DNA of 64,000 bases from Myxococcota bacterium (GTDB lineage: Bacteria > Myxococcota_A > SURF-8 > G963663525), in NCBI GenBank assembly GCA_963676915.2, contig CAXXVK010000057.1, positions 1-64,000 on the forward strand. Direction: 5' to 3'. This document shows positions 1,264 to 14,623 of this stretch, one piece after another. Both the position numbers and the translations under genes were made by a program. How positions within the stretch are numbered: the stretch's first letter is position 1; each line of letters starts with the position of its first letter. The notes beneath the pieces were generated by a model. That model was not told where the DNA came from and ran no database searches. It saw nothing but the letters and a program-made list of their open reading frames with translations.

Positions 1264-2448
1264 TTATTTCCGGCAGATCAAAAAGCACTGGACACCGGCC
1301 TGCGGGACGTAATCCTTCAGATGTTTTTTCGATTTCCTCGGCAATTTCCACACCGAAGCGTCAACCGCTTGGAATTTCACGATATTTCGGTAGCCGGTTT
1401 CTACGATGGTAAACCCTGTTTCGTCCGAAACCTGTACCAAGGCTTCCATGGCCAGCGCTTTTTCGGAATGCGATTCACGGGCTTCGGGAAATACGGGTTC
1501 CTCGTATCCGGTAAGAAGTTTCAACGTCTCCAGAATTTCATTGAGATGGAACCGGATGTTGTTGACTTTGGCACAATCGGGGTCTCGGCAAAGATGCGGA
1601 TCGTTGATATAGAGGATGCCGCCCGGCTTTAAAACGCGCTTCATTTCCTCCATGATTCGTTTGGGTTGGCGATAGAAATGATGCAATACCGCTACGGCCG
1701 TTATCGCATCGAAACTATCATCCGCAAAAGGCAGATGTTCGGCATCTCCCCGCACGAACTGAAACCCCACGTTTTTAGAAGCCAGCTGGCAGCCTTCCAT
1801 CGTGATTTCAAGACCGAACCCCTCTAGTTTGTCGCCGTAGCGTTTTTCCAGAAGATAGGGAATCAACCCGATACCGCTACCGACATCCAGAAGCCGCAGC
1901 GGTTCCTCCGAGTCGGAAGCGATTTGATCCAATGCCGGGAAAAACGGATCGATTTTGCTCGTTTGGTACCAAAGGCTTTTGTTGAAATCGAAAAATTCCT
2001 GCGATTGGTAGAGTTCAACGTGGCTGGCGATTTCGTCCACGTGGTCCTCGATGGAATTGGCTGCGGATTTCGGTTCTTCTACGGGAGTCTGCTCTTCTTC
2101 CGCTTCCGGTGTCCATCTGGAGGTTATTTTTTTCAAGACATGGTAGCTTTTTTGCAATCCATGCTTGTAAAGAACCGGCGGAATCGTTTCCTCTGCCAGA
2201 CGAATGGCATACGGTCTGATTTTGGCCATCGGATGGAAAGCTTCGGAATCGTCTTCAGAAGTCTCGGGAGTTGTTTCGATTTCCGGCAGTTCGATGGGTT
2301 CGTTCAATTTGGGATAAAAATCCCAAACATTTTCTTCTTTTGAAAAATATAAGTTGCAGTTCGGACAGAAAAGCTTGTCGTCCACGGTTTGAAGGTCACC
2401 ACCGCATTCCGGGCAGCGAAAAAGATCGTGTTGGATCGTATTCCCCAT
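1264..2448 (-). CDS. Class I SAM-dependent methyltransferase with N-terminal Trm112-like zinc ribbon
   Basis: CPECGG...CPNC at the N-terminus; LLDVGSGIG, GDAEHLPFADDSFD and RVLKPGG motifs. Confidence 0.85.
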   Translation of the reverse strand: MGNTIQHDLFRCPECGGDLQTVDDKLFCPNCNLYFSKEENVWDFYPKLNEPIELPEIETTPETSEDDSEAFHPMAKIRPYAIRLAEETIPPVLYKHGLQKSYHVLKKITSRWTPEAEEEQTPVEEPKSAANSIEDHVDEIASHVELYQSQEFFDFNKSLWYQTSKIDPFFPALDQIASDSEEPLRLLDVGSGIGLIPYLLEKRYGDKLEGFGLEITMEGCQLASKNVGFQFVRGDAEHLPFADDSFDAITAVAVLHHFYRQPKRIMEEMKRVLKPGGILYINDPHLCRDPDCAKVNNIRFHLNEILETLKLLTGYEEPVFPEARESHSEKALAMEALVQVSDETGFTIVETGYRNIVKFQAVDASVWKLPRKSKKHLKDYVPQAGVQCFLICRK

Positions 2449-4122: not shown

Positions 4123-4350
4123 CTCAAACCCTCCAAAGGCAGGCAAGAAAGGACATAATTATATATTGAAACGAAAAATAACGAAAGAAGTTTCCTGTTA
4201 CCGACGCTTTGAAAACACCGGTAAACGAACCTTCGATTGATATTGTAGTTACCATCACCGTTTCCGCAACCTCTGTGGAGATTGCATCCTTTACCTTATA
4301 GGATGGGGTCCGGAGGCTGTCAAGAAACGGTGGGTTTCCCACGTTCCCTT

Positions 4351-5640
4351 CTACTCGTGATGATCCCCGCCTTTTCCATGGTTGTGACCGTGGCTGTGGC
4401 GATGTTCATGATCGTGTGTATGGGGACCGTCCGGCGTCGCATCGTGGCTGTGGCCGTGGTCGTCACCCGTCGAGTGATCATGGCTGTGTGCATGAACGTG
4501 CGTATGTTCGTGCTCGTGGGATTCACCCGTATGGACGTGCTCGTGATCCCCACCGTGACCATGGTTGTGTCCGTGGCTGTGATGATGTTCGTGGTCGTGG
4601 CTGTGCGGACCTTCGGGGGCCGAATCGTGGCTGTGGCCGTGATCGTCGCCGGTCGAGTGGTCATGGCTGTGGTCGTGATGGTGAACATGCTCGTGCACGT
4701 GGGGGGAGCTGTCGTGTTCCTGCTCGACATGGGCATGGTGTTCGTGGTCCGAATCGTGGCCGTGGGTATGCCCGTGGCTATGAGAATGCTCGTGGCCGTG
4801 GCTGTGCGGACCTTCGGGGGCCGAATCGTGGCTATGTCCATGGTCGTCGCCGGTCGAATGATCGTGGTCGTGCTCGTGGACGTGGGTATGCGGATGCACG
4901 TGAGGCTCGTCCGGTGTGCCTTCATGACCGTGATCGTGAACGATATCATGGGCATGGGAATGCTCGTGCTCGTGTTTGTGCGGGCCGTCGCCACCGTGTT
5001 CGTGCTTGTGAACGTGACTGTGCGTATGGGTATGCGCATGATCGTGGGTATGCGCATGATCGTGGGTATGCGGATGCTTGTGGTCTCCGTGATGCGCATG
5101 GTCGTGACCATGGCTGTGACCGTGCTCATGGTCGTGATCGTGAGGAATACCCCGAATGTGCTGCATCAGATGGTCGGCGGAACCTTCCACATCATCCAGC
5201 CATCCGCTGTTGGCATCATCTTTGTCGTCCAAGCCCTTGATATATGGCTTGAGATCCAGCACGGGTGTACCGTCGAAGACATCCACGCCGTAGGTGTGAA
5301 TCACGTTTCCTTCGATCTTGACGATGGGTACGATATGCAGACCGATCGGGTTCGGACGTCGCGGGCTGCGCGAGGCGAACAAACCCACCTGCTTGCCTTT
5401 GGCCCATGGGGGAGTTGCCAGGGTTTCGACCGGTTTGGACCCCTGGTCCAGCCAGGTCAGGACCATCACGTAACGGAAGCGGTCCAGATCGCGCAGAGCC
5501 GGAACCCATGCTTCATCGAGTTCGATACGGCAGGCGGCGCCTTCGCGTTCCAGCGGTTGATTGGGGGTAAAATCGGGATCGAATGGACTATGCACGACGC
5601 CGATCGGCGAGAACAACGGTTTTTCGGACGTGTTGGACAT
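4351..5640 (-). CDS. tsaA: TsaA/TrmO-like SAM-binding methyltransferase domain fused to a long His-rich tail
   Basis: PIGVVHSPF, GLFASRSPRRPNPIGLH and GVDVFDGTPVLDLKPYI motifs of the TrmO_N/UPF0066 domain, followed by 263 aa of HxH repeats. Confidence 0.88.
   Translation of the reverse strand: MSNTSEKPLFSPIGVVHSPFDPDFTPNQPLEREGAACRIELDEAWVPALRDLDRFRYVMVLTWLDQGSKPVETLATPPWAKGKQVGLFASRSPRRPNPIGLHIVPIVKIEGNVIHTYGVDVFDGTPVLDLKPYIKGLDDKDDANSGWLDDVEGSADHLMQHIRGIPHDHDHEHGHSHGHDHAHHGDHKHPHTHDHAHTHDHAHTHTHSHVHKHEHGGDGPHKHEHEHSHAHDIVHDHGHEGTPDEPHVHPHTHVHEHDHDHSTGDDHGHSHDSAPEGPHSHGHEHSHSHGHTHGHDSDHEHHAHVEQEHDSSPHVHEHVHHHDHSHDHSTGDDHGHSHDSAPEGPHSHDHEHHHSHGHNHGHGGDHEHVHTGESHEHEHTHVHAHSHDHSTGDDHGHSHDATPDGPHTHDHEHRHSHGHNHGKGGDHHE
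4354..5142 (-). repeat. Coding His-Xaa repeat array with three ~60-67 aa units (HSTGDDHGHSHD(S/A)(A/T)P(E/D)GPH)
   Basis: The unit is seen three times in translation; an identical 36-bp DNA copy lies at 4597-4632 and 4798-4833. Confidence 0.95.
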
Positions 5641-5838
5641 GACGATCTCCCTGTATGAAATGTCGAATCACTCGGAACCTTTTTAGAATAAGAACACTTT
5701 AGGCTCGGGGCAAGCCAAAACGTCACAAGGGATATCGGAAATTCGCTTTCGTCCTCCCTTGACATCCCGCTGAATTGCACCAATTTATCTGAAAAGATTT
5801 CAATGAGAGAATTGATAAATTATTTCAAGGAGGTTCCC

Positions 5839-6327: not shown

Positions 6328-6654
6328 TCAACCTTCCTCGTCACCTTCGGGCATGCAGTTGTATAGCAACGTCGGGTAGCCATCCTCGCAAGCGGACGAC
6401 TCGACGCAATCCGCCGTTGCGCGAGAGTAGCCCTCTTCGTTACATTCTTTGACGCAATCGTCCCACACGGGATCGGAAGTGGCGGGCAGGCACTCGCGCA
6501 TTTTGTCGCAAATCCGCTTGCAGTTGAAGGTTTCCTCGTGAATACCGGGAAAGTCGTTGAGTCCGGGCGCACTGCAAGACCCAAGCCCGAAGGCCAGCAA
6601 TCCAACGAATAAAACCTTCGAAATCGCGCCACATCGTTTCATCGAAGTTTTCAC
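6328..6654 (-). CDS. Small Cys-rich lipoprotein
   Basis: Signal peptide ending LGSC; CxxxCxxxxxC...CxxxC...CxxxxxC pattern. Confidence 0.7.
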   Translation of the reverse strand: MKTSMKRCGAISKVLFVGLLAFGLGSCSAPGLNDFPGIHEETFNCKRICDKMRECLPATSDPVWDDCVKECNEEGYSRATADCVESSACEDGYPTLLYNCMPEGDEEG

Positions 6655-6964: not shown

Positions 6965-9664
6965 CTACAGGCTTTCCTCCCGGCGAACCATCAGCGCCAG
7001 CACGAACAGGACCAACAAGAGCGGCAACCAATGTCCGGCACCGGTTTCCTGGCATCCGCTGGAGGATTTCTTTTCCTCGTCTTCGTCGCCCGGATTGACC
7101 GTGCCGTCGCTATCCGTTCCGCCGTCTACGGTGTCCGCCGCTTCCAGATCTTCGTCTCCGCCGCTGGACGTTCCGGCGATGGTGAACGTATTGCTGGTCA
7201 GAGGCAGGCCGAGCAGGCTGGAACCGCCAAGATCCACGTCGTCTTCATCGATGATGTAGTAGATAAACCGCCCGGCCTTGGCCAGGTGCGAAAACTCCAC
7301 TTCCATCGTCATGTTGTAAACCTGGCCCGCCGTCAGCGATTTTCCGACGTTGAAGGTCAATTTCTGGTCGTCGGATTCCGGCGTCACTTCCGCAATCAGG
7401 TCGCCTTTGACCCCATCGGCGGTTTCGTACAGCTTGTAGGCTACGATGTCGTCCGGGTCGTAAATGGTTCCTTTGGGCTGCAACGAGAATGCGTTGAACG
7501 TCACGGCTTTCACGGCGGTCAGCCGGAAATCGATCAGATCGTGGGCCTGATCCGCTTCGATGTCGCCCGCCGGAAGCGTCGTATCGGCGATTTCGAAAGT
7601 CGCTTCGGTGGTGTCGTCGGGAATCTGCACCATGCGCGATTCGACGGGAAGACCGCGAACTTTGCCATCGACGGACACGCGGCTTTCTTTGATTTCGAGC
7701 TGCATCTTCGAGTCGGTTCCCGCATCTTCGGAAATATCGACCGCCAGCACCAGGTTGATGTCGTCCCGGTTGGACAGCCTGAACTCCTTGAGGTGTTCGG
7801 CGTTGTTGAAGGTCAACGCATTGCCGGACCACGGAGTTCCCGATTCTCCGAAGAGCGTATCGCCGTCGTCCAGTTGTCCGTCGTTGTTTTCGTCGATGGC
7901 CAGCCACCCTCTCGTGAGCAGACTGGAGTCGAACTCGCCATCCTCTTTCGGCGTGAAAACGAGTGTATTGATACGAACCTGGTCTTCTTCATCGCCTGCG
8001 ACGAACAGGTTGAGTTGCAATACGGTAACTTTTTCTTCACCCGGCAGCACGAAACGATAGCTGGAGTTATGGCTTGCGCCCTGGCTGAAGGTCACCTCGG
8101 CTTCCAGGCTTTCTTCCTGAATGTTGTGCGTGACCGGCTTTCCGCCGTTGGTGAAGTAGACGTTGCCGTCGTTCGAGATGATTTCGGCGGTGTTTTTGAC
8201 GATTTGTTCCTTGTTGGCGGTGGTTTTCACCCGGCAGCGGACTTCCACCTGCTGCTTGTATTCCTCGCCTGGGAAGAATTCTTCGGACAAAAACAGACCT
8301 TTTTCCGTCATCAGCGGGGAAAAGCCGTCGAGTGTGTCCTCCAGGGCGATTTCCACGCCGTTTTTGATCAGAACGGTGGAACCGGCGATGTAATCGACGA
8401 CATCCAGCGGCAGGGTATCTTTGAGGTATACATCGCTCGCCACGTCTTCGCCGCAGTTCTGAATACGAATCACGTACAGGAATTCCTGACCGGGATACAG
8501 GTAGGTTCCATCGGCGACGCTGGCCAGTTTTTCCGGTTCGTCGGGAATGTCGAAACTGGGGTTTTTCGTCTTGATGGCGATCAGGAAATAGTTGGTGAGA
8601 ATCTGATCCTGCCCGGCGGAAATCGACACGTCGGCAAAGGTATCGCCCAGCGTCAACGCGCCGCCGACGGCGAAGGTATCCAGGTCGACACCGTATTGGT
8701 TGATCCGGCAGCCGTTCTCGTTCTCTTCGAGGTGGGCGTTGATCGTACCGTTGAATACGTTGTCGGGAACGTTGCATTCGGTGCGTTCCGGGTTGGGGTT
8801 GTCGGGATCGGTATCGAACAGCAGTACGTCATTGAACCGTAACTCTTCGTTATGCGTAAGGAATCCCGTTCCGCTGATGGCAGGATCACCCTCGCCGATG
8901 AAAAACGTCGCCTTGGCGTCGGGATCTTCCGGCACGGTGAACCCGGAGGGACGTAGTTGCAGCACCGAATCGCGGGTCAATTGGAAATCGGTATAGTAAT
9001 AGATGCGTTTCGCTTCGCCTTCCGGCACGTTGTAGACCAACAGAATCGACCAGCCCGCCAGCGCGGTGGTCAACAGTTTGTAGGGTTCATCCACATAAGC
9101 GCCATCGAAACCGGTGATTTTGTATTCGCCGTTGAGCGGTTTTCCCTGGGTTTCGTGGTGGTCTTTGATCGCGTCGGTGATATCCACCCGGAACGTGAAA
9201 TACTTGAACACCGCGTCCACTCCGGCGGCGTCGGCATCGACGAACTCGATGCTTTGGAACTGCTCGGGGTCGGTCGCGTCGCCGGTAACGAGAATCGGCT
9301 CCACATCGGTCGTTCCCGCCGGTTGAGGCGGAAGAACTTCGATGGTGTTGTCAATGATTCCGGTATCGGGATCGACGGAACCCATCCAGACGAAATAAGC
9401 CTTGAGCAGGTTCACATCGTCGGGAATTCCCAGTAATTTCGCCTTGGATTTGCTAGTCAGGCTGTCTCCCTGGCCGTCCGGGGTACCGAGCAGACAACCG
9501 AAAGCGCTGGCCTGGCACAAGTCTTCCATGAACGTTCCACCGGTGGTGGCATAGTCCACATTGCCTTCCCATTTATCGGTCGGTTCGAGCGCCTGGGCGG
9601 ACGATATCGCGAAAAACATCCATAAAACGGTGGAAAGCAAACACATGCGTGAAGATAGCTTCAT
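6965..9664 (-). CDS. Large secreted protein with DUF11-like domain and MYXO-CTERM-like C-terminal sorting signal
   Basis: Signal peptide (..AQA); PGQEFLYVIRIQNCGEDVASDVYLKDTLP (DUF11-like); acidic linker then SSSGCQETGAGHWLPLLLVLFVLALMVRR. Confidence 0.8.
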   Translation of the reverse strand: MKLSSRMCLLSTVLWMFFAISSAQALEPTDKWEGNVDYATTGGTFMEDLCQASAFGCLLGTPDGQGDSLTSKSKAKLLGIPDDVNLLKAYFVWMGSVDPDTGIIDNTIEVLPPQPAGTTDVEPILVTGDATDPEQFQSIEFVDADAAGVDAVFKYFTFRVDITDAIKDHHETQGKPLNGEYKITGFDGAYVDEPYKLLTTALAGWSILLVYNVPEGEAKRIYYYTDFQLTRDSVLQLRPSGFTVPEDPDAKATFFIGEGDPAISGTGFLTHNEELRFNDVLLFDTDPDNPNPERTECNVPDNVFNGTINAHLEENENGCRINQYGVDLDTFAVGGALTLGDTFADVSISAGQDQILTNYFLIAIKTKNPSFDIPDEPEKLASVADGTYLYPGQEFLYVIRIQNCGEDVASDVYLKDTLPLDVVDYIAGSTVLIKNGVEIALEDTLDGFSPLMTEKGLFLSEEFFPGEEYKQQVEVRCRVKTTANKEQIVKNTAEIISNDGNVYFTNGGKPVTHNIQEESLEAEVTFSQGASHNSSYRFVLPGEEKVTVLQLNLFVAGDEEDQVRINTLVFTPKEDGEFDSSLLTRGWLAIDENNDGQLDDGDTLFGESGTPWSGNALTFNNAEHLKEFRLSNRDDINLVLAVDISEDAGTDSKMQLEIKESRVSVDGKVRGLPVESRMVQIPDDTTEATFEIADTTLPAGDIEADQAHDLIDFRLTAVKAVTFNAFSLQPKGTIYDPDDIVAYKLYETADGVKGDLIAEVTPESDDQKLTFNVGKSLTAGQVYNMTMEVEFSHLAKAGRFIYYIIDEDDVDLGGSSLLGLPLTSNTFTIAGTSSGGDEDLEAADTVDGGTDSDGTVNPGDEDEEKKSSSGCQETGAGHWLPLLLVLFVLALMVRREESL

Positions 9665-9759: not shown

Positions 9760-11166
9760 TTATAGATCCATCTCCGCGTAAAATCGTTCCTTTTTGGTGA
9801 TCAGTTCCTCTCGGGATACTTCACAGGCCGCATCGGCGAGCATAGGTTTTTGTTGGAACAAAGGATTGAAATCACGAGGCAATTTCTCGGGAAGCCAGCC
9901 GTTTCGGCGAGCGGTTTCGAACAAGCGCGTTCCCGGCAGCGCTACGGCGAACTGCACAAGGGGCTTCGCTCCCGTGCGCTCGTGCAATCGGCGAGCGAAA
10001 TCCAGTGTCCGGTCGATCTGTTCGCGGGTTTCTCCGGGTAGACCGATGATGAAATGCAGCAGGCAGGGCAGCTCGAATTCCCGACACCAGGAAGCCGCCT
10101 GTTCGATACGGGCAAGATCCAGCCGTTTGCCGATGACATCGTTGATCACTTCTCCGTCCCCGGATTCCGGCGACAACGAGAGCAGATCGATGCACCCGGC
10201 CAGTCGTTTCACCTGTTCGCGGTTCAACGCATCTCCCCGTAATCCATTGGGAAACGCCGCTTTCAGGTTGGTGCGTTCCAGAAGATCCAACAGGCGGTCG
10301 AAGTGTTCCGGCTGTACGTTCGCCGCCTCGTCGAGAAACACGAGCCGGGTCACCGTCGGCTGACCGGCGAGGTAGGACACGGCGCGTTCGAGATCTTCCG
10401 GCGGTACGGGACGCCAGGGACTTTTCCCACCACGAGCCGCCGATTGTGCCGTGCAAAACAGGCAATGATGGGGACAACCCCGCGAGGCTTTGATAGGAAT
10501 GCAACCGGAGTCGAAACCGAAAGAGTCCGAACCCTCGGGATAGGCTTTCGACAAAAACGAAGCGAAAACGTCGAGATCCAGCGCTTCGTACAGGGAAGCA
10601 TCCAGATTTCGTAGAAATTGCGGGGCTGCACCGTGGCGGATCTCCAAGGATTCGCCACGCTTGGGCAAAGAATGAGCCAGTGATTTCAGGGTGTTATCCG
10701 CTTCTCCGGTGAGGATGCCATCCGGGACGATGGGCCAGGAGGCGACCGAGGCGGGATCGTAGGCGATGTAGTTCATTCCACCGACGTGCATGTCGGCCAG
10801 CCAGATCGGTCGTTCGGGTTGGGCGCGACGCAGTCCGCCGACGATGGCCGCCAACAACTTGTCCGAAGGGCTTTGCACGCTGAAAGGATCGTAGTGAATC
10901 ACGGCCAAATCGCACCGAATCGCTTCCAATCGTGCTAAAAAGGAACGAATCGTCGGCCCCAGCCAGCGATACCCCTGGGCATTGGGTGGTCCGTATGTGG
11001 CATCGGGGAGCAGAAAGGCGTCGAGCACATCCACGCCAAACCCTTCCGCACGCAGATTGGCAACATTCCACCAGCACCCGAATCCGACAAAGGGCGGGTA
11101 GTCGATAGCGTCACGATGCACCTGCAAGGGGGGACGCACCAGCAAAATGTTCGGTTTTCGGACCAC
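9760..11166 (-). CDS. Cobalamin-binding radical SAM protein
   Basis: NILLVRPP N-terminus and TGEAD motif typical of B12-binding domains; SRGCPHHCLFC CxxxCxxC; ESG; FIIGLPGETRE; PGT.LF. Confidence 0.9.
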   Translation of the reverse strand: MVRKPNILLVRPPLQVHRDAIDYPPFVGFGCWWNVANLRAEGFGVDVLDAFLLPDATYGPPNAQGYRWLGPTIRSFLARLEAIRCDLAVIHYDPFSVQSPSDKLLAAIVGGLRRAQPERPIWLADMHVGGMNYIAYDPASVASWPIVPDGILTGEADNTLKSLAHSLPKRGESLEIRHGAAPQFLRNLDASLYEALDLDVFASFLSKAYPEGSDSFGFDSGCIPIKASRGCPHHCLFCTAQSAARGGKSPWRPVPPEDLERAVSYLAGQPTVTRLVFLDEAANVQPEHFDRLLDLLERTNLKAAFPNGLRGDALNREQVKRLAGCIDLLSLSPESGDGEVINDVIGKRLDLARIEQAASWCREFELPCLLHFIIGLPGETREQIDRTLDFARRLHERTGAKPLVQFAVALPGTRLFETARRNGWLPEKLPRDFNPLFQQKPMLADAACEVSREELITKKERFYAEMDL

Positions 11167-11189: not shown

Positions 11190-14100
11190 TCAGTAGCAGG
11201 AACAATAGGCGAAAGAACCGCTCGCTTGGCAACTGCCGCTTCCGCCGATGGAACAGTATTGCACACAGTCGGTAACCGTCCAAACCCCGTCGAAAGAATC
11301 GCAGGAACAAACCGTCGTGTCGTCCAGGCAATAGTCGTCATCGTAGAAAGAACAGGAACCGGAGCATGTCCCGGACCCGCTGCAGTCGTTTTGGTCCCAG
11401 TCGCAGCCGGAACAGTCGCAATCGTCATCGTTTGCATAACCGCAAGGATCGTCGGTATAGCAGCATTCTTCGTAGGCCGAATGTCCGGGGCAGAGTTGTC
11501 CCGAGGAACCGCCGCAGTCCGCATCATCCCAGTCGCAAGCTCCGTTGCAATCGCATTCGTCGTCGTCGGACCAGCCGCAGGGGTCGTCGCTGTAACAGCA
11601 GGGAGAACTTCCCGTGTATCCGTCGCAAACGTTTGCATCGGCCTGGATTTCCACAGCGGTGAACAGGTAATCGTTTTCGCCGCCCTGCGTGTCGTAATAC
11701 TGCACCGCCACGAAGTACGTCCCGGCGGCGGATGGCTCGAACAGCGCCGTTTCGTTATTGGTCGAGCGGTTGTCGTCATAATGCCAGCAGGAACCGGAGG
11801 TCTGCGAACAGCCCGTACTGTCGTAAATGACGATCATGGCGTCCCAACCGGTGGGATAGACATCGAACCGGTATTTGTACCCGCTACGCGCCGTGAAACG
11901 GAACACCAGTTCCGGTCCGCTGGCGGATTGTGGGGCAAGTTGCCCTTTTTGCGAACAACCGGACACCTGGAGTTCGTCGTCGAGACAGAAGGTCTGCCCT
12001 TCCATGGCGTAGGGGAACGAATCGACGATCAGCGGTTCCTCGCAACTGGCGAGTCCTCCTTCACCGCAGGTACACAAACAGGTGTCTTCCTGGGCCGAGG
12101 CGGAATATCCGCAAGCCGTTCCTTCGGCATAGCCGTTTTCCTGGCAATATTGCGCACAGTTCCATTGCGTGTACTGACTCGTGTCCGAATCGCAGAGGCA
12201 TAAGGTAAGGTCGTCTTCCATGCAATACGGATCGTCACCGTAGCAGTATCCGCTGCATTCATCGCCGCCGGATTCGTCGGAGCATTGGCAGACTTCGTAC
12301 CCGGCCTCCGAGTGATACCCGCAATGATGGAAATAATTGTATCCGGCATTGAGACAACCCGATTCGCAATCCACGACGGTCAACCGGTTGTCGTCTCCAC
12401 AGAAGCACAACGACACACCGTCTTCCATGCAGGTATTGTCCTGGAGGCTGGAACAACTTCCCGAGCATTCTTCGGTACTTCCCGAACAATCCGCATCGTC
12501 CCAGGAACAGGCGCCCATGCAGTCGCAGGAATCGTTTCCGGCCATCGAACAGGGATCGTCGGTCTTGCAGCAGCTATCGAAACCGTTGTAATCGGGACAC
12601 CAGGTCGAGGGGGTCGAACCGTCGCAGCTTCCCGAGGACGGCAGACAGTAGCTGTCCCAATCGACCGTCTGGCAGGTGTAGCCGCTGGGGCAATCGGTGT
12701 TTGAATAACAGTCGTCGAGGCAAAAGCCGTCTACACAATCGAAAAAGCCTTCACAATCGTAAAAACTGCGACAAACCGTGCATTGTTGCCATACGCAGGT
12801 TCCCTCGGACCAATCGCAGGCTTCGCCGGGCTGGCAGTCGTCGTCACTGGTACAACGGCTCGTTCCCGTAACGCATTCGCCGGAATACCAGTCGCAGATC
12901 TGTCCCGTCGGGCAGTCGTCGTCGGAAGTGCAACCCCAGTCGTAGTCGCAGGTTCCCGTGGCCTGATTGCATTCGTAGCCATCGGGGCAGATGCTGGGAT
13001 CATCCCGGCAGTCGGTGGATGAACTGTCCACCTCGCAAAGTCCCGTATAGGGGTTGCAGACATAGCCCAGCGGACAATCGTTGTCGGACTGGCACCCTTC
13101 ATCGTCGCCGACCACGCACAATCCCGTTGTCGTGCTGCAATACGTTCCTTCAGGGCACCATCCCCCCGGCTCGCGGCAGTCGTTGGGTATGCATTCACCG
13201 GTACTGGCGTTGCAGCTCGTTCCGGTAGGGCATACCGACCCGTCGCGGCAGTCTTCCGGCACGCAATAGCCGGTGGACTGGTCGCAGGTGGTGTCTTCGG
13301 AGCATACGGTGTTGGTGCGACAATCCGCCGGGACACACTGACCGCTTGCTTCTTCGCAAACCATGCCTTCATCGCAAACGCCGGTCTGGCGGCAATCGGC
13401 GCTGGTCGTCGGGCAGGTGCGGGAGAATGGAAAACACTGTTTTTGCGAACCATCCTCGCTAACACGCATACAATAGGAATTGGTCATCGTGCAAGGCTGG
13501 TCGTTGGAGCAATCCACGCCGCAAAACGTGCTTCCGGTGGAATCGGGCAGACAAAGGTCTTCCGTACCGCCGCAATCGGCGTCGGTGGTGCAGGGTTCGC
13601 AGTATCCCAATCCTCCGGCGGGAATTTCTTCGCAACGGTTGGTTTGGGTGTTGCAATACTCACCGTCGGGACAACCCGTGACCCGGCATCCGGCCGGAGC
13701 CGTTCCGCAATAGCCGTCCGAGGGACGACAATACATGTTTCCCTGAATGGGTTGGCAGAGGTAGTCATCGGGACACTGGCCGTGGGTTTCGCAAGGAAGG
13801 GCGCAGAAAGAGCCTTCTTCGGGATCGGGCAGGCAGAGCGCTGACGCGTTGTTGCAATCCGAAACGGACGTGCAGACCGCACACAGTTTTTCGAAGGAGT
13901 CTTCCTCCTCGACGCAGCAGCCATCGATGCACTCGTGATCGGGCAATTCGTTGGCGAGGCAATCCATCGTTTCCTGGCAAGTCACCCCCGAGGCGCATCC
14001 GGTATTTTCGGTTTTGTCCGTATCGCCGGGAAGGTTTTCGTCCTGCTCGCACATTCCCGAGGTCAGATTGCAATGGCTTCCATAGCCGCAATCTTCGTCG

Positions 14101-14315
14101 CTCAGACAATCGTTTCCGGTCACCGGTACGATGCAGAAACCGTCGATACACTGTTCGCCGAAGGCCATCTGGCAATCTTCATCCACGGTACAGGAAAACG
14201 TATCTTGCGTATCTGCAGCTACGTTCGATTGGTCGTCACAGGAAACCGCTCCGCCAATCACCAACAGGATCGTCAAACAGATCGCAAACCATGGGATTCC
14301 CGCTCGGGCTTTCAT
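11190..14315 (-). CDS. Very Cys-rich modular lipoprotein (Dickkopf-like CxxDxDC repeats, LNR-like repeats, PPC-like domain)
   Basis: Start MKARAG with GGAGGGG RBS; lipobox AVSC; about 140 Cys by manual count; GPELVFRFTA...WDAMIVIYD...DD...AGTYFVAV PPC-like segment. Confidence 0.85.
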   Translation of the reverse strand: MKARAGIPWFAICLTILLVIGGAVSCDDQSNVAADTQDTFSCTVDEDCQMAFGEQCIDGFCIVPVTGNDCLSDEDCGYGSHCNLTSGMCEQDENLPGDTDKTENTGCASGVTCQETMDCLANELPDHECIDGCCVEEEDSFEKLCAVCTSVSDCNNASALCLPDPEEGSFCALPCETHGQCPDDYLCQPIQGNMYCRPSDGYCGTAPAGCRVTGCPDGEYCNTQTNRCEEIPAGGLGYCEPCTTDADCGGTEDLCLPDSTGSTFCGVDCSNDQPCTMTNSYCMRVSEDGSQKQCFPFSRTCPTTSADCRQTGVCDEGMVCEEASGQCVPADCRTNTVCSEDTTCDQSTGYCVPEDCRDGSVCPTGTSCNASTGECIPNDCREPGGWCPEGTYCSTTTGLCVVGDDEGCQSDNDCPLGYVCNPYTGLCEVDSSSTDCRDDPSICPDGYECNQATGTCDYDWGCTSDDDCPTGQICDWYSGECVTGTSRCTSDDDCQPGEACDWSEGTCVWQQCTVCRSFYDCEGFFDCVDGFCLDDCYSNTDCPSGYTCQTVDWDSYCLPSSGSCDGSTPSTWCPDYNGFDSCCKTDDPCSMAGNDSCDCMGACSWDDADCSGSTEECSGSCSSLQDNTCMEDGVSLCFCGDDNRLTVVDCESGCLNAGYNYFHHCGYHSEAGYEVCQCSDESGGDECSGYCYGDDPYCMEDDLTLCLCDSDTSQYTQWNCAQYCQENGYAEGTACGYSASAQEDTCLCTCGEGGLASCEEPLIVDSFPYAMEGQTFCLDDELQVSGCSQKGQLAPQSASGPELVFRFTARSGYKYRFDVYPTGWDAMIVIYDSTGCSQTSGSCWHYDDNRSTNNETALFEPSAAGTYFVAVQYYDTQGGENDYLFTAVEIQADANVCDGYTGSSPCCYSDDPCGWSDDDECDCNGACDWDDADCGGSSGQLCPGHSAYEECCYTDDPCGYANDDDCDCSGCDWDQNDCSGSGTCSGSCSFYDDDYCLDDTTVCSCDSFDGVWTVTDCVQYCSIGGSGSCQASGSFAYCSCY

Positions 14316-14623
14316 CTCTCCCCTCCATCCGCAAGAAGTTTCATCGTCCGGATTTTTCACAGTCGCACGTCGCTATGACAATTTTTCATTGTAAGGCGAT
14401 ACGAAAAATTATCAAACATGTTTTTCACTGGACGATTCGAAAAATGTAAGCGAAATGTTAGAGATAGGAAAATACCTCCTTCGAAACCTGTTGTTTTTGG
14501 CAAAACCTTGACCCTTTTCGGCGTGGCATGTATTTCTATAGAATTATGGCGGGGAACCGGAAACCCGCGACCACGATCCCAAATCCTTTCGATCGTCTTT
14601 CCGGAGACTGATGGGGACTCTTT

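Follow-up and report, generated by a model that had tools for sequence, protein, structure and literature searches.

A TsaA/TrmO-like barrel protein with a 105-histidine tail in a Myxococcota genome, and its possible role in nickel handling

We describe a gene for a histidine-rich protein in a stretch of 64,000 nucleotides (hereafter the window; contig CAXXVK010000057.1, positions 1 to 64,000) from the genome of a Myxococcota bacterium (assembly GCA_963676915.2). The protein joins a beta-barrel of the TsaA/TrmO type, for which the annotation is tRNA methylase, to a long tail that contains 105 histidines. Because relatives of the protein are fused to the nickel insertase LarC, or encoded beside it, a nickel-handling helper is more likely than the annotated tRNA methylase. 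More specifically, the protein may be a nickel reservoir or donor, probably serving LarC, a proposal that we judge to be evenly balanced between right and wrong.

The gene and its histidine-rich tail

The open reading frame (ORF) at 4351..5640 on the minus strand is intact in the six-frame ORF list (429 aa, ATG start), and its start context, 'REIVMSNT', is common to the window gene and its same-genus ortholog. PF01980 (TrmO_N) is the sole Pfam family in the protein (residues 25-138, E 1.8e-31). A Pfam scan of the protein gave no match to TrmO_C (PF18389) or to the LarC family (PF01969). A previous reading of the window from its letters alone (the sequence-only reading) had reported a TrmO_N domain in this ORF without the C-terminal domain of the E. 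coli type, and was correct on both counts. The features of the gene are as follows, where HxH denotes two histidines separated by any residue:

4351..5640 (-): whole gene, TsaA-like barrel then His-rich tail; 429 codons and a stop, from the ORF list and translation, with orthologs in the relatives G001, G003, G004, G005, G007 and G012
5227..5568 (-): TrmO_N (PF01980) beta-barrel core, residues 25-138, containing Q28, R91, D120 and K131; from the Pfam match, the alignment to AF0241 and fold matches
5140..5172 (-): clade-defining terminal motif H157-x3-H161-x2-G164-x-P166-H167 (HLMQHIRGIPH), the end of most clade proteins and the start of the tail; from conservation in a 13-sequence clade alignment and presence in 108/267 retrieved proteins
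4354..5148 (-): His-rich tail, residues 165-429, with 105 His and 83 HxH; from a composition count, with His conserved at 73/75 positions relative to the G001 ortholog
4738..4905 (-): repeat unit 1, 79% identity to the middle unit; from a DNA repeat search
4537..4704 (-): repeat unit 2, the middle unit and reference copy; from the same search
4354..4521 (-): repeat unit 3, C-terminal, 77% identity to the middle unit; from the same search
5647..5651 (-): Shine-Dalgarno-like GGGAG, 7-11 nt 5' of the ATG; read from the sequence
4330..4342 (-): weak terminator-like hairpin (5 pairs) with a T-rich tail, 9 nt past the stop; from a consensus scan only, which found 5 sites against 2.6 expected

From I165 onward the tail comprises 265 residues, namely 105 His (40%), 32 Asp, 29 Gly, 23 Ser and 21 Glu among others, and no Cys. 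The histidines make up 83 overlapping HxH motifs and 16 strictly alternating runs of 5-29 residues each. The linkers are GGDGP (once), STGDD (three times), APEGP (twice) and TPDGP (once). The histidine count of about 105, the alternating runs and the linkers named in the sequence-only reading are all present, in a tail that it had put at 263 residues. It had also seen three recently duplicated units. The tail DNA does hold three copies of a 168-nt unit; because these are only 77-79% identical to the middle copy, they are duplicates, but not very recent ones.

Tails are found in relatives as well. The ortholog in G001, which belongs to the same genus and is assembled in 4 contigs, is a 356-aa protein with one unit fewer and 74% identity over 345 aligned residues. 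Five further relatives, from the same order or phylum, have tails with 91 (G003), 78 (G004), 76 (G007), 33 (G005) and 12 (G012) histidines, and the tail in G003 includes three near-perfect repeats. The assemblies of G003, G004, G005 and G007 consist of 1-5 contigs, and the tails in relatives with such assemblies are 94-207 aa long. Among the relatives the spacers drift and the His positions are kept.

Four contig pieces from the public sequencing run X1, probably made from the source sample, tile the stretch with 0 differences at a depth of 3-4. Because the pieces end at the repeats, with no single piece covering the three units together, the number of units in this genome lacks independent confirmation. 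Next to none of the sampled words are present in runs X2 and X3, and no run of RNA data is listed as containing the stretch. The breaks at repeat borders and the low depth in the sole run that holds the stretch, along with the ortholog in G001 that is one unit shorter, are what could be expected if the tail were an assembly expansion. On the other side, the frame is open across 429 codons, the units differ from one another, the X1 pieces agree exactly with the assembly, His positions are conserved, and relatives assembled in 1-5 contigs bear tails of their own. The tail is not a short-read artefact, and we regard an assembly expansion, or a gene in decay, as exceedingly improbable.

When the tail is aligned with that of the G001 ortholog, 73/75 aligned His are identical, compared with 55/117 aligned non-His residues, a contrast that is partly built in by the method since the aligner favours H-H matches. 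In the barrel, the non-His identity to the same ortholog is 138/159. Because its histidines are kept in the genus ortholog, six relatives are tailed, and tails have arisen independently in Firmicutes (see below), the tail is under selection for its histidines and not junk.

A distinct clade with a terminal histidine motif

Homologue searches in two large protein libraries retrieved 267 proteins, a sample that is biased by length filters. The nearest relatives are 45-56% identical to the window protein. They have 'PPW' before an RSPxRPNPIG loop, 'LDxKxDANxGW' after the barrel, and a terminal H-x3-H-x2-G-I-P-H-[DE]-[YH]. H157, H161 and G164 are invariant, and H167 is nearly so, in the 13-sequence clade alignment. 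The motif follows the barrel in 108 of the 267 proteins; 81 of these end no more than 6 residues past it, a clear His-rich tail follows in 7, and some other sequence in 20.

A FastTree tree (163 rows) was calculated from the barrel core alone, after removal of the motif and tail and without fragments <110 aa. All 46 rows with the motif or a His tail fall within one clade of 73 tips (support 94, a FastTree value to be given moderate trust). The clade holds none of the 10 TrmO_C-bearing proteins, nor a second TsaA paralog that this genome encodes. Named genomes with clade members belong to Desulfobacterales, Calditrichaceae, Bacteroidales, Atribacterota, Spirochaetota, Desulfitobacterium, Desulfosporosinus, Methanosarcinales/ANME-2 and Asgard archaea. 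Long His tails have at least two origins, one in the order of the window's genome and one in Firmicutes of the Desulfitobacteriaceae type (P0015, P0145, L044, L045, L063); the genera with such independent tails are Desulfitobacterium, Desulfosporosinus and Acididesulfobacillus. One sister sub-branch has His-rich linkers before the barrel and no terminal motif, and the Gln of its pocket is often lost.

Many members of the Methanosarcinales and Desulfobacterales types have a helical N-terminal domain of ~100 aa (PF26551) with a conserved 'HW..HN..H' (P0005, P0008, P0026, P0151, P0153, P0237). This domain is N-terminal in 63/120 of the near-length relatives listed. Three clade representatives (P0125, P0127 and P0135) start with lipoprotein-like signal peptides (L-x-[GA]-C), as judged by eye, and keep the pocket residues; export would be odd for an enzyme that uses S-adenosylmethionine (AdoMet).

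Links of the clade to LarC and nickel

Fusions were sought among 150 library representatives, of which 90 were scanned; the other 60 were <195 aa and too short for a second domain. PF01969 (LarC Ni_insertion) is above the cut-off in 17/150 representatives and below it in one more, and two further PF01969 fusions (P0084 and P0092) came from the other library search. The fusions have two topologies. The first places the barrel after LarC1 (P0134, P0140, P0152 and L066). In L066, from a metagenome-assembled genome of Thermotogae, genes of their own for LarC2 and LarB come after the LarC1-barrel fusion, and all pass their NCBIfam cut-offs.

In the second topology the barrel is inserted within LarC1, at about position 105-117 of the PF01969 profile. 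We mapped this insertion to M. thermoacetica LarC through PDB entry 12bi, using a chain offset of 18 derived from H70/H72. At the C-terminal junction of the insert, 'LHEAQDILIDIVG' aligns with 'FHEVGAVDAIVD', which is the FHE of LarC that includes H118. The N-terminal junction follows AExxxH, where 'AEREAH' is equated by motif with 'AEGQVH', that is, E104/H108. The available text of Wolfe et al. 2026 (PMC13510736) proposes the LarC1 histidine cluster as a nickel site and reports that H108A, H118A and H160A nearly abolish LarC activity; the cryo-electron microscopy of that study showed no nickel at this cluster. Other fusions in the clade are to a NicO-type permease with its own His loop (P0186), Fur together with LarC (P0159), an ATP-binding cassette ATPase (P0143) and, at the cut-off, CooT (P0197). 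A fusion to HMA (P0188) has no motif and lies outside the clade.

LarE, LarB, LarC2 or HypB/HypC are encoded near the clade gene in 6/41 loci with the motif. A LarE gene immediately precedes the clade gene in L031, L034 and L038 (TIGR00268, 196 bits against a cut-off of 150) and is a near neighbour in L051, and HypB and HypC are directly upstream in L036. Also recurrent beside clade genes are Nitro_FeMo-Co-type proteins, MinD/4Fe-4S ATPases, homocysteine S-methyltransferase (3 loci) and DUF1684.

LarC was identified in 38/41 genomes with a motif-clade gene (37/40 without the fused L066), compared with 15/37 controls. The controls are genomes of the same scan whose fetched TsaA gene has no motif; L055 and L058 were left out as ambiguous. 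The resulting Fisher p = 6e-7 overstates the case, as the genomes lack independence and the two sets differ in their taxa.

On contig C26, the genome from which the window derives has a larE-larB-larC operon, and its contig C6 carries a Lar_N gene of the LarA type. No [NiFe]-hydrogenase was above cut-off in this genome, and a NicO-family transporter was not found in it. Its LarC (445 aa, G000:C26, L101 1471..2808 -) includes an HxH run of ~50 aa that ends at the equivalents of H70/H72. The LarC proteins of the same-genus relative and of 15 other relatives lack this run; His arrays seem to expand and contract quickly in this genus. Among all ORFs in a six-frame scan of the genome, LarC and the window protein have the two highest His densities. 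Thus, HxH arrays concentrate on a proven nickel enzyme and on the window protein. The same scan found a His-dense ORF on C19, which is an FtsX/MacB permease, and several without a Pfam family (G000:C22:42970-46005, 1012 aa; C30:54941-55741, 267 aa; C60:37589-39061, 491 aa).

The barrel, its AdoMet pocket and tRNA methylation

A structure predicted for part of the window protein is of moderate confidence (mean predicted local distance difference test score, pLDDT, 67.7). Its fold matches 2nv4 (AF0241), 3okx (RPA0152), 7bu1 (P. aeruginosa TrmO) and 1xqb (HI0510). Residues 154-163 are predicted to be helical at low confidence (pLDDT ~55-62), with H157 and H161 one turn apart. Q28, R91, D120 and K131 align with Gln22, Arg82, Asp111 and Lys122 of AF0241, and all four are invariant in the 13 clade sequences. 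In the available text of Kimura et al. (PMC4132733) these residues of AF0241 are equated with Gln25, Arg92, Asp125 and Lys136 of E. coli TrmO, which are needed for activity. All four AdoMet-contact residues are kept in the window protein, which is therefore predicted to bind AdoMet or a similar carboxylate-bearing nucleotide. To that extent, the suggestion of the sequence-only reading that metal status is linked to an AdoMet-type domain is plausible.

The protein could be an ordinary TrmO/TsaA that forms N6-methyl-N6-threonylcarbamoyladenosine (m6t6A) at position 37 of tRNA-Thr(GGU), with the His tail as an accessory of little consequence. It passes the cut-off of TIGR00104, the NCBIfam TsaA model, which is an equivalog model (107.5 bits against 93.25). 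The four contact residues are retained, the fold matches TrmO structures, and databases label the relatives TsaA or TrmO. Missing, however, is the TrmO_C/DPRxxY domain, described as essential in E. coli; the available text of PMC4132733 reports that D194A/R196A in the DPRxxY motif abolished m6t6A formation. It also states that archaeal short forms may use another substrate and that m6t6A was never found in archaea.

The second TsaA paralog of the genome (160 aa, L001 1423..1905 (-) = G000:C3) is tail-less and encoded beside holB (DNA polymerase III delta'-like). It scores higher than the window protein on both models (PF01980, 136.2 vs 112.4 bits; TIGR00104, 138.1 vs 107.5 bits), a further point against an ordinary TrmO. 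The paralog likewise lacks TrmO_C. The clade of the window protein excludes every TrmO_C protein in the tree and includes LarC-inserted forms. The lipoprotein-like N-termini of the three representatives noted above would rule out a tRNA substrate for those proteins. By its sequence, the window protein is not a canonical TrmO, and we consider an ordinary m6t6A-forming role quite improbable.

The barrel might instead use its own tail, or other proteins with HxH, as the methylation substrate; alternatively, methyltransferase activity might be switched on and off by the amount of metal that the tail carries. An AdoMet pocket and an HxH array do occur in one chain, and the conserved terminal His motif lies next to the barrel. 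METTL9, the known HxH methyltransferase, is of a different fold class (class I, seven-beta-strand). A METTL9-like domain was not found in the window protein; PF01980, a class VIII barrel, is the sole domain identified. An HxH array is absent from most clade members, as 81/108 end at the motif, and the sister sub-branch keeps His-rich linkers yet has often lost the pocket Gln. The sequence-only reading had raised the tail as a methylation substrate; nothing was identified in support of this, and we consider tail-directed or metal-gated methylation highly improbable.

Proposed role and the evidence that weighs against it

We propose that the window protein is a cytoplasmic member of an undescribed clade of TsaA/TrmO-like barrels, with a role in nickel handling and not in m6t6A formation in tRNA. 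The motif H-x3-H-x2-G-x-P-H would form a metal site beside the barrel. In this lineage the motif has been extended, via repeated duplication of the unit, into the 265-residue HxH array. Acting as a reservoir or antenna, the array could bind Ni(II) ions in large numbers, perhaps with Zn or Co as well, and pass nickel to the motif site, from where it would reach a client. The likeliest client would be LarC (a CTP-dependent nickel insertase), at the LarC1 histidine cluster where related barrels insert. The pocket could hold AdoMet or, given its carboxylate-binding Arg and Lys, the pincer nucleotide precursor. A metal-binding function of the tail, which the sequence-only reading had also put forward, is supported by the histidines kept across relatives and by the nickel context of the clade (LarC, NicO, Fur, HypB and LarE).

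Several observations weigh against this proposal, or against its more specific parts. Neither the window gene nor any of its six order-level orthologs adjoins a Lar, nickel-transport or other metal gene. Conservation of their surroundings stops at the genus, and the neighbours share no common theme. A survey of homologue tails and neighbourhoods, of the kind that the sequence-only reading had in view, does give nickel links for the clade at large; neither FmdE nor a Ni/Co transporter is encoded beside the window gene or its six order-level relatives. Unseen in that reading were the widespread clade with its terminal His motif, the link to nickel through LarC, and the second, canonical-type TsaA paralog. 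A nickel-, cobalt- or AdoMet-responsive riboswitch was not found upstream in the 7 loci, where the riboswitch scan gave two matches only (E 0.0068 and 0.56), both under the family gathering scores.

Within the clade, the commonest neighbour is not a Lar protein. It is a class I AdoMet-dependent methyltransferase of ~215 aa, encoded within 5 kb in 11/41 loci (e.g., L024, L026, L028, L030, L031, L034, L038, L051 and L054). Its gene is often found together with those for the Nitro_FeMo-Co-type proteins, the MinD/4Fe-4S ATPases and DUF1684. Among the 41 relatives, LarC is present in 6/7 carriers vs 19/34 others (p = 0.22), which is not significant. As 19/25 LarC-positive relatives are without a clade protein, LarC does not need the clade, which could be at most a facultative helper. 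The lipoprotein-like forms with an intact pocket hint that the ligand is possibly not AdoMet. A composition of H, D, G, S and E would fit zinc-binding loops equally well as nickel sites.

A further case against dependence on LarC is G003, a relative of the same order with a genome in one contig (93% complete). It encodes a 372-aa ortholog with 91 tail His, and no LarC, Lar_N (LarA) or [NiFe]-hydrogenase was found in it; a NicO-family gene is present. Thus, the tail protein cannot depend on LarC everywhere.

This relative also speaks for a general store or buffer of divalent metal (Zn, Co or Ni) without a specific tie to LarC, in which the barrel would have an unrelated AdoMet-dependent job or be a dimeric scaffold. 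The lack of metal-pathway neighbours at the window locus and the six orthologous loci, and the acidic His-rich make-up of the tail, are consistent with such a buffer. So is the rapid variation of the tail, from 12 to 105 His among relatives, which is as expected of a capacity trait. A general buffer does not account for a barrel clade that is itself tied to LarC by two independent fusion topologies, by LarE, LarB and LarC2 neighbours, and by the presence of LarC in most carrier genomes (38/41 vs 15/37 controls). Nor does it account for the tail-less majority of the clade, which keeps the terminal His motif (81/108). We consider a general buffer unlikely, and favour the nickel reservoir or donor.

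Genomic context of the window gene

Nearby genes encode a 394-aa Methyltransf_11 protein, a DUF1844 protein, a PDZ protein and, divergently, a bcp peroxiredoxin. Of the neighbours, the genus relative shares just bcp and a small Cys-rich ORF, and the five other relatives share none. The methyltransferase at 1264..2448 was compared with the class I methyltransferase that recurs beside clade genes. The likeness is merely generic (30% over 100 aa), and we claim no link. A consensus scan found no sigma-70-like promoter for the window gene. The terminator-like hairpin after the gene suggests a single-gene unit.

The small Cys-rich ORF beside bcp (6328..6654 (-)) has a signal-peptide-like start and no Pfam family, and is 73% identical to its counterpart in the same-genus relative. 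Elsewhere in the window, a radical SAM gene at 9760..11166 (-) is flanked by two large ORFs, one of 899 aa without a Pfam family (6965..9664 (-)) and one of 1056 aa with a weak PPC match only (11190..14360 (-)).

Implications

We advance only tentatively the broader reading that the motif clade is a missing accessory factor of nickel-pincer cofactor biosynthesis, and think it somewhat more apt to be wrong than right. Such a factor would deliver nickel while docked at the histidine cluster of LarC1, or would hold the dicarboxylate/dithiocarboxylate pincer nucleotide in the former AdoMet pocket. The nickel source of LarC and the coordination of its distant sites are still-open questions. For the missing partner, a domain that is fused to LarC1 in two ways, once between essential histidines, makes a concrete candidate. 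If this reading is true, no larger nickel antenna than the 105-His tail would so far have been seen on a factor of this kind, thousands of proteins of anaerobes and methanogens would be wrongly annotated as 'TsaA/TrmO', and the supply of nickel to LarC would become testable.

The equivalog name TrmO covers a large clade that probably does not modify tRNA and that has members in Methanosarcinales/ANME, Asgard archaea, Desulfobacterales and Firmicutes. As an HxH array the tail is a natural extreme, its histidines are clearly under selection, and it could be useful for the study of high-capacity metal binding.

The fold and His-rich nickel tails are already known; their combination, the clade and its link to LarC appear to be new. 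No description of His-tailed TsaA proteins or LarC-TsaA fusions was found in the literature searched, which misses most subscription journals and supplements. The terms TrmO, fusion and methyltransferase have 0 occurrences in the main text of Wolfe et al. 2026 (PMC13510736). The sole related note found is a remark from 2010, in the available text of PMC2954224, that FmdE-UPF0066 fusions exist.

Comparison with known systems

Like E. coli TrmO (YaeB/TsaA, a class VIII AdoMet enzyme), the window protein has a single-sheet N-terminal beta-barrel domain (PF01980, TIGR00104) and keeps the equivalents of Gln25, Arg92, Asp125 and Lys136. Its predicted fold matches the TrmO structures 7btu, 7btz and 7bu1. 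Unlike E. coli TrmO, it is without the C-terminal DPRxxY domain, and residues 165-429 form a His array instead. The H-x3-H-x2-G-x-P-H motif and the 265-aa His tail set it apart as well, as does its membership of a separate clade that is associated with nickel.

AF0241 from Archaeoglobus fulgidus (PDB 2nv4, crystallised with AdoMet) is the best PDB match both by sequence (E 1.9e-21) and by fold (E 5.7e-11, template modelling score 0.69 on the target). It is also a short form without TrmO_C. With 147 aa, AF0241 ends soon past the barrel; the alignment stops at query residue 138 and so shows no counterpart of the His motif or the tail.

The resemblance to LarC, the nickel insertase of the nickel-pincer nucleotide cofactor, is one of association. 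The barrel clade is fused to LarC1 or inserted in it at the histidine cluster, and the LarC of this genome bears an HxH run in the style of the window protein's tail. The window protein differs in that it is without PF01969 (LarC1/LarC2) and is encoded on another contig than larEBC. In 19/25 LarC-positive relatives, LarC is present without a clade protein.

With the His-rich nickel chaperones and stores (HypB, UreE, SlyD, CooJ and Hpn), the window protein shares a low-complexity His-rich stretch. A link to the assembly of nickel centres is seen for its clade, in which HypB and HypC directly adjoin one member, and not at the window locus or its orthologous loci. The His stretches of these proteins are far shorter, with a few to ~30 His. 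Their scaffolds are GTPases, peptidyl-prolyl isomerases or small proteins, whereas the window protein has a barrel of the AdoMet-binding type.

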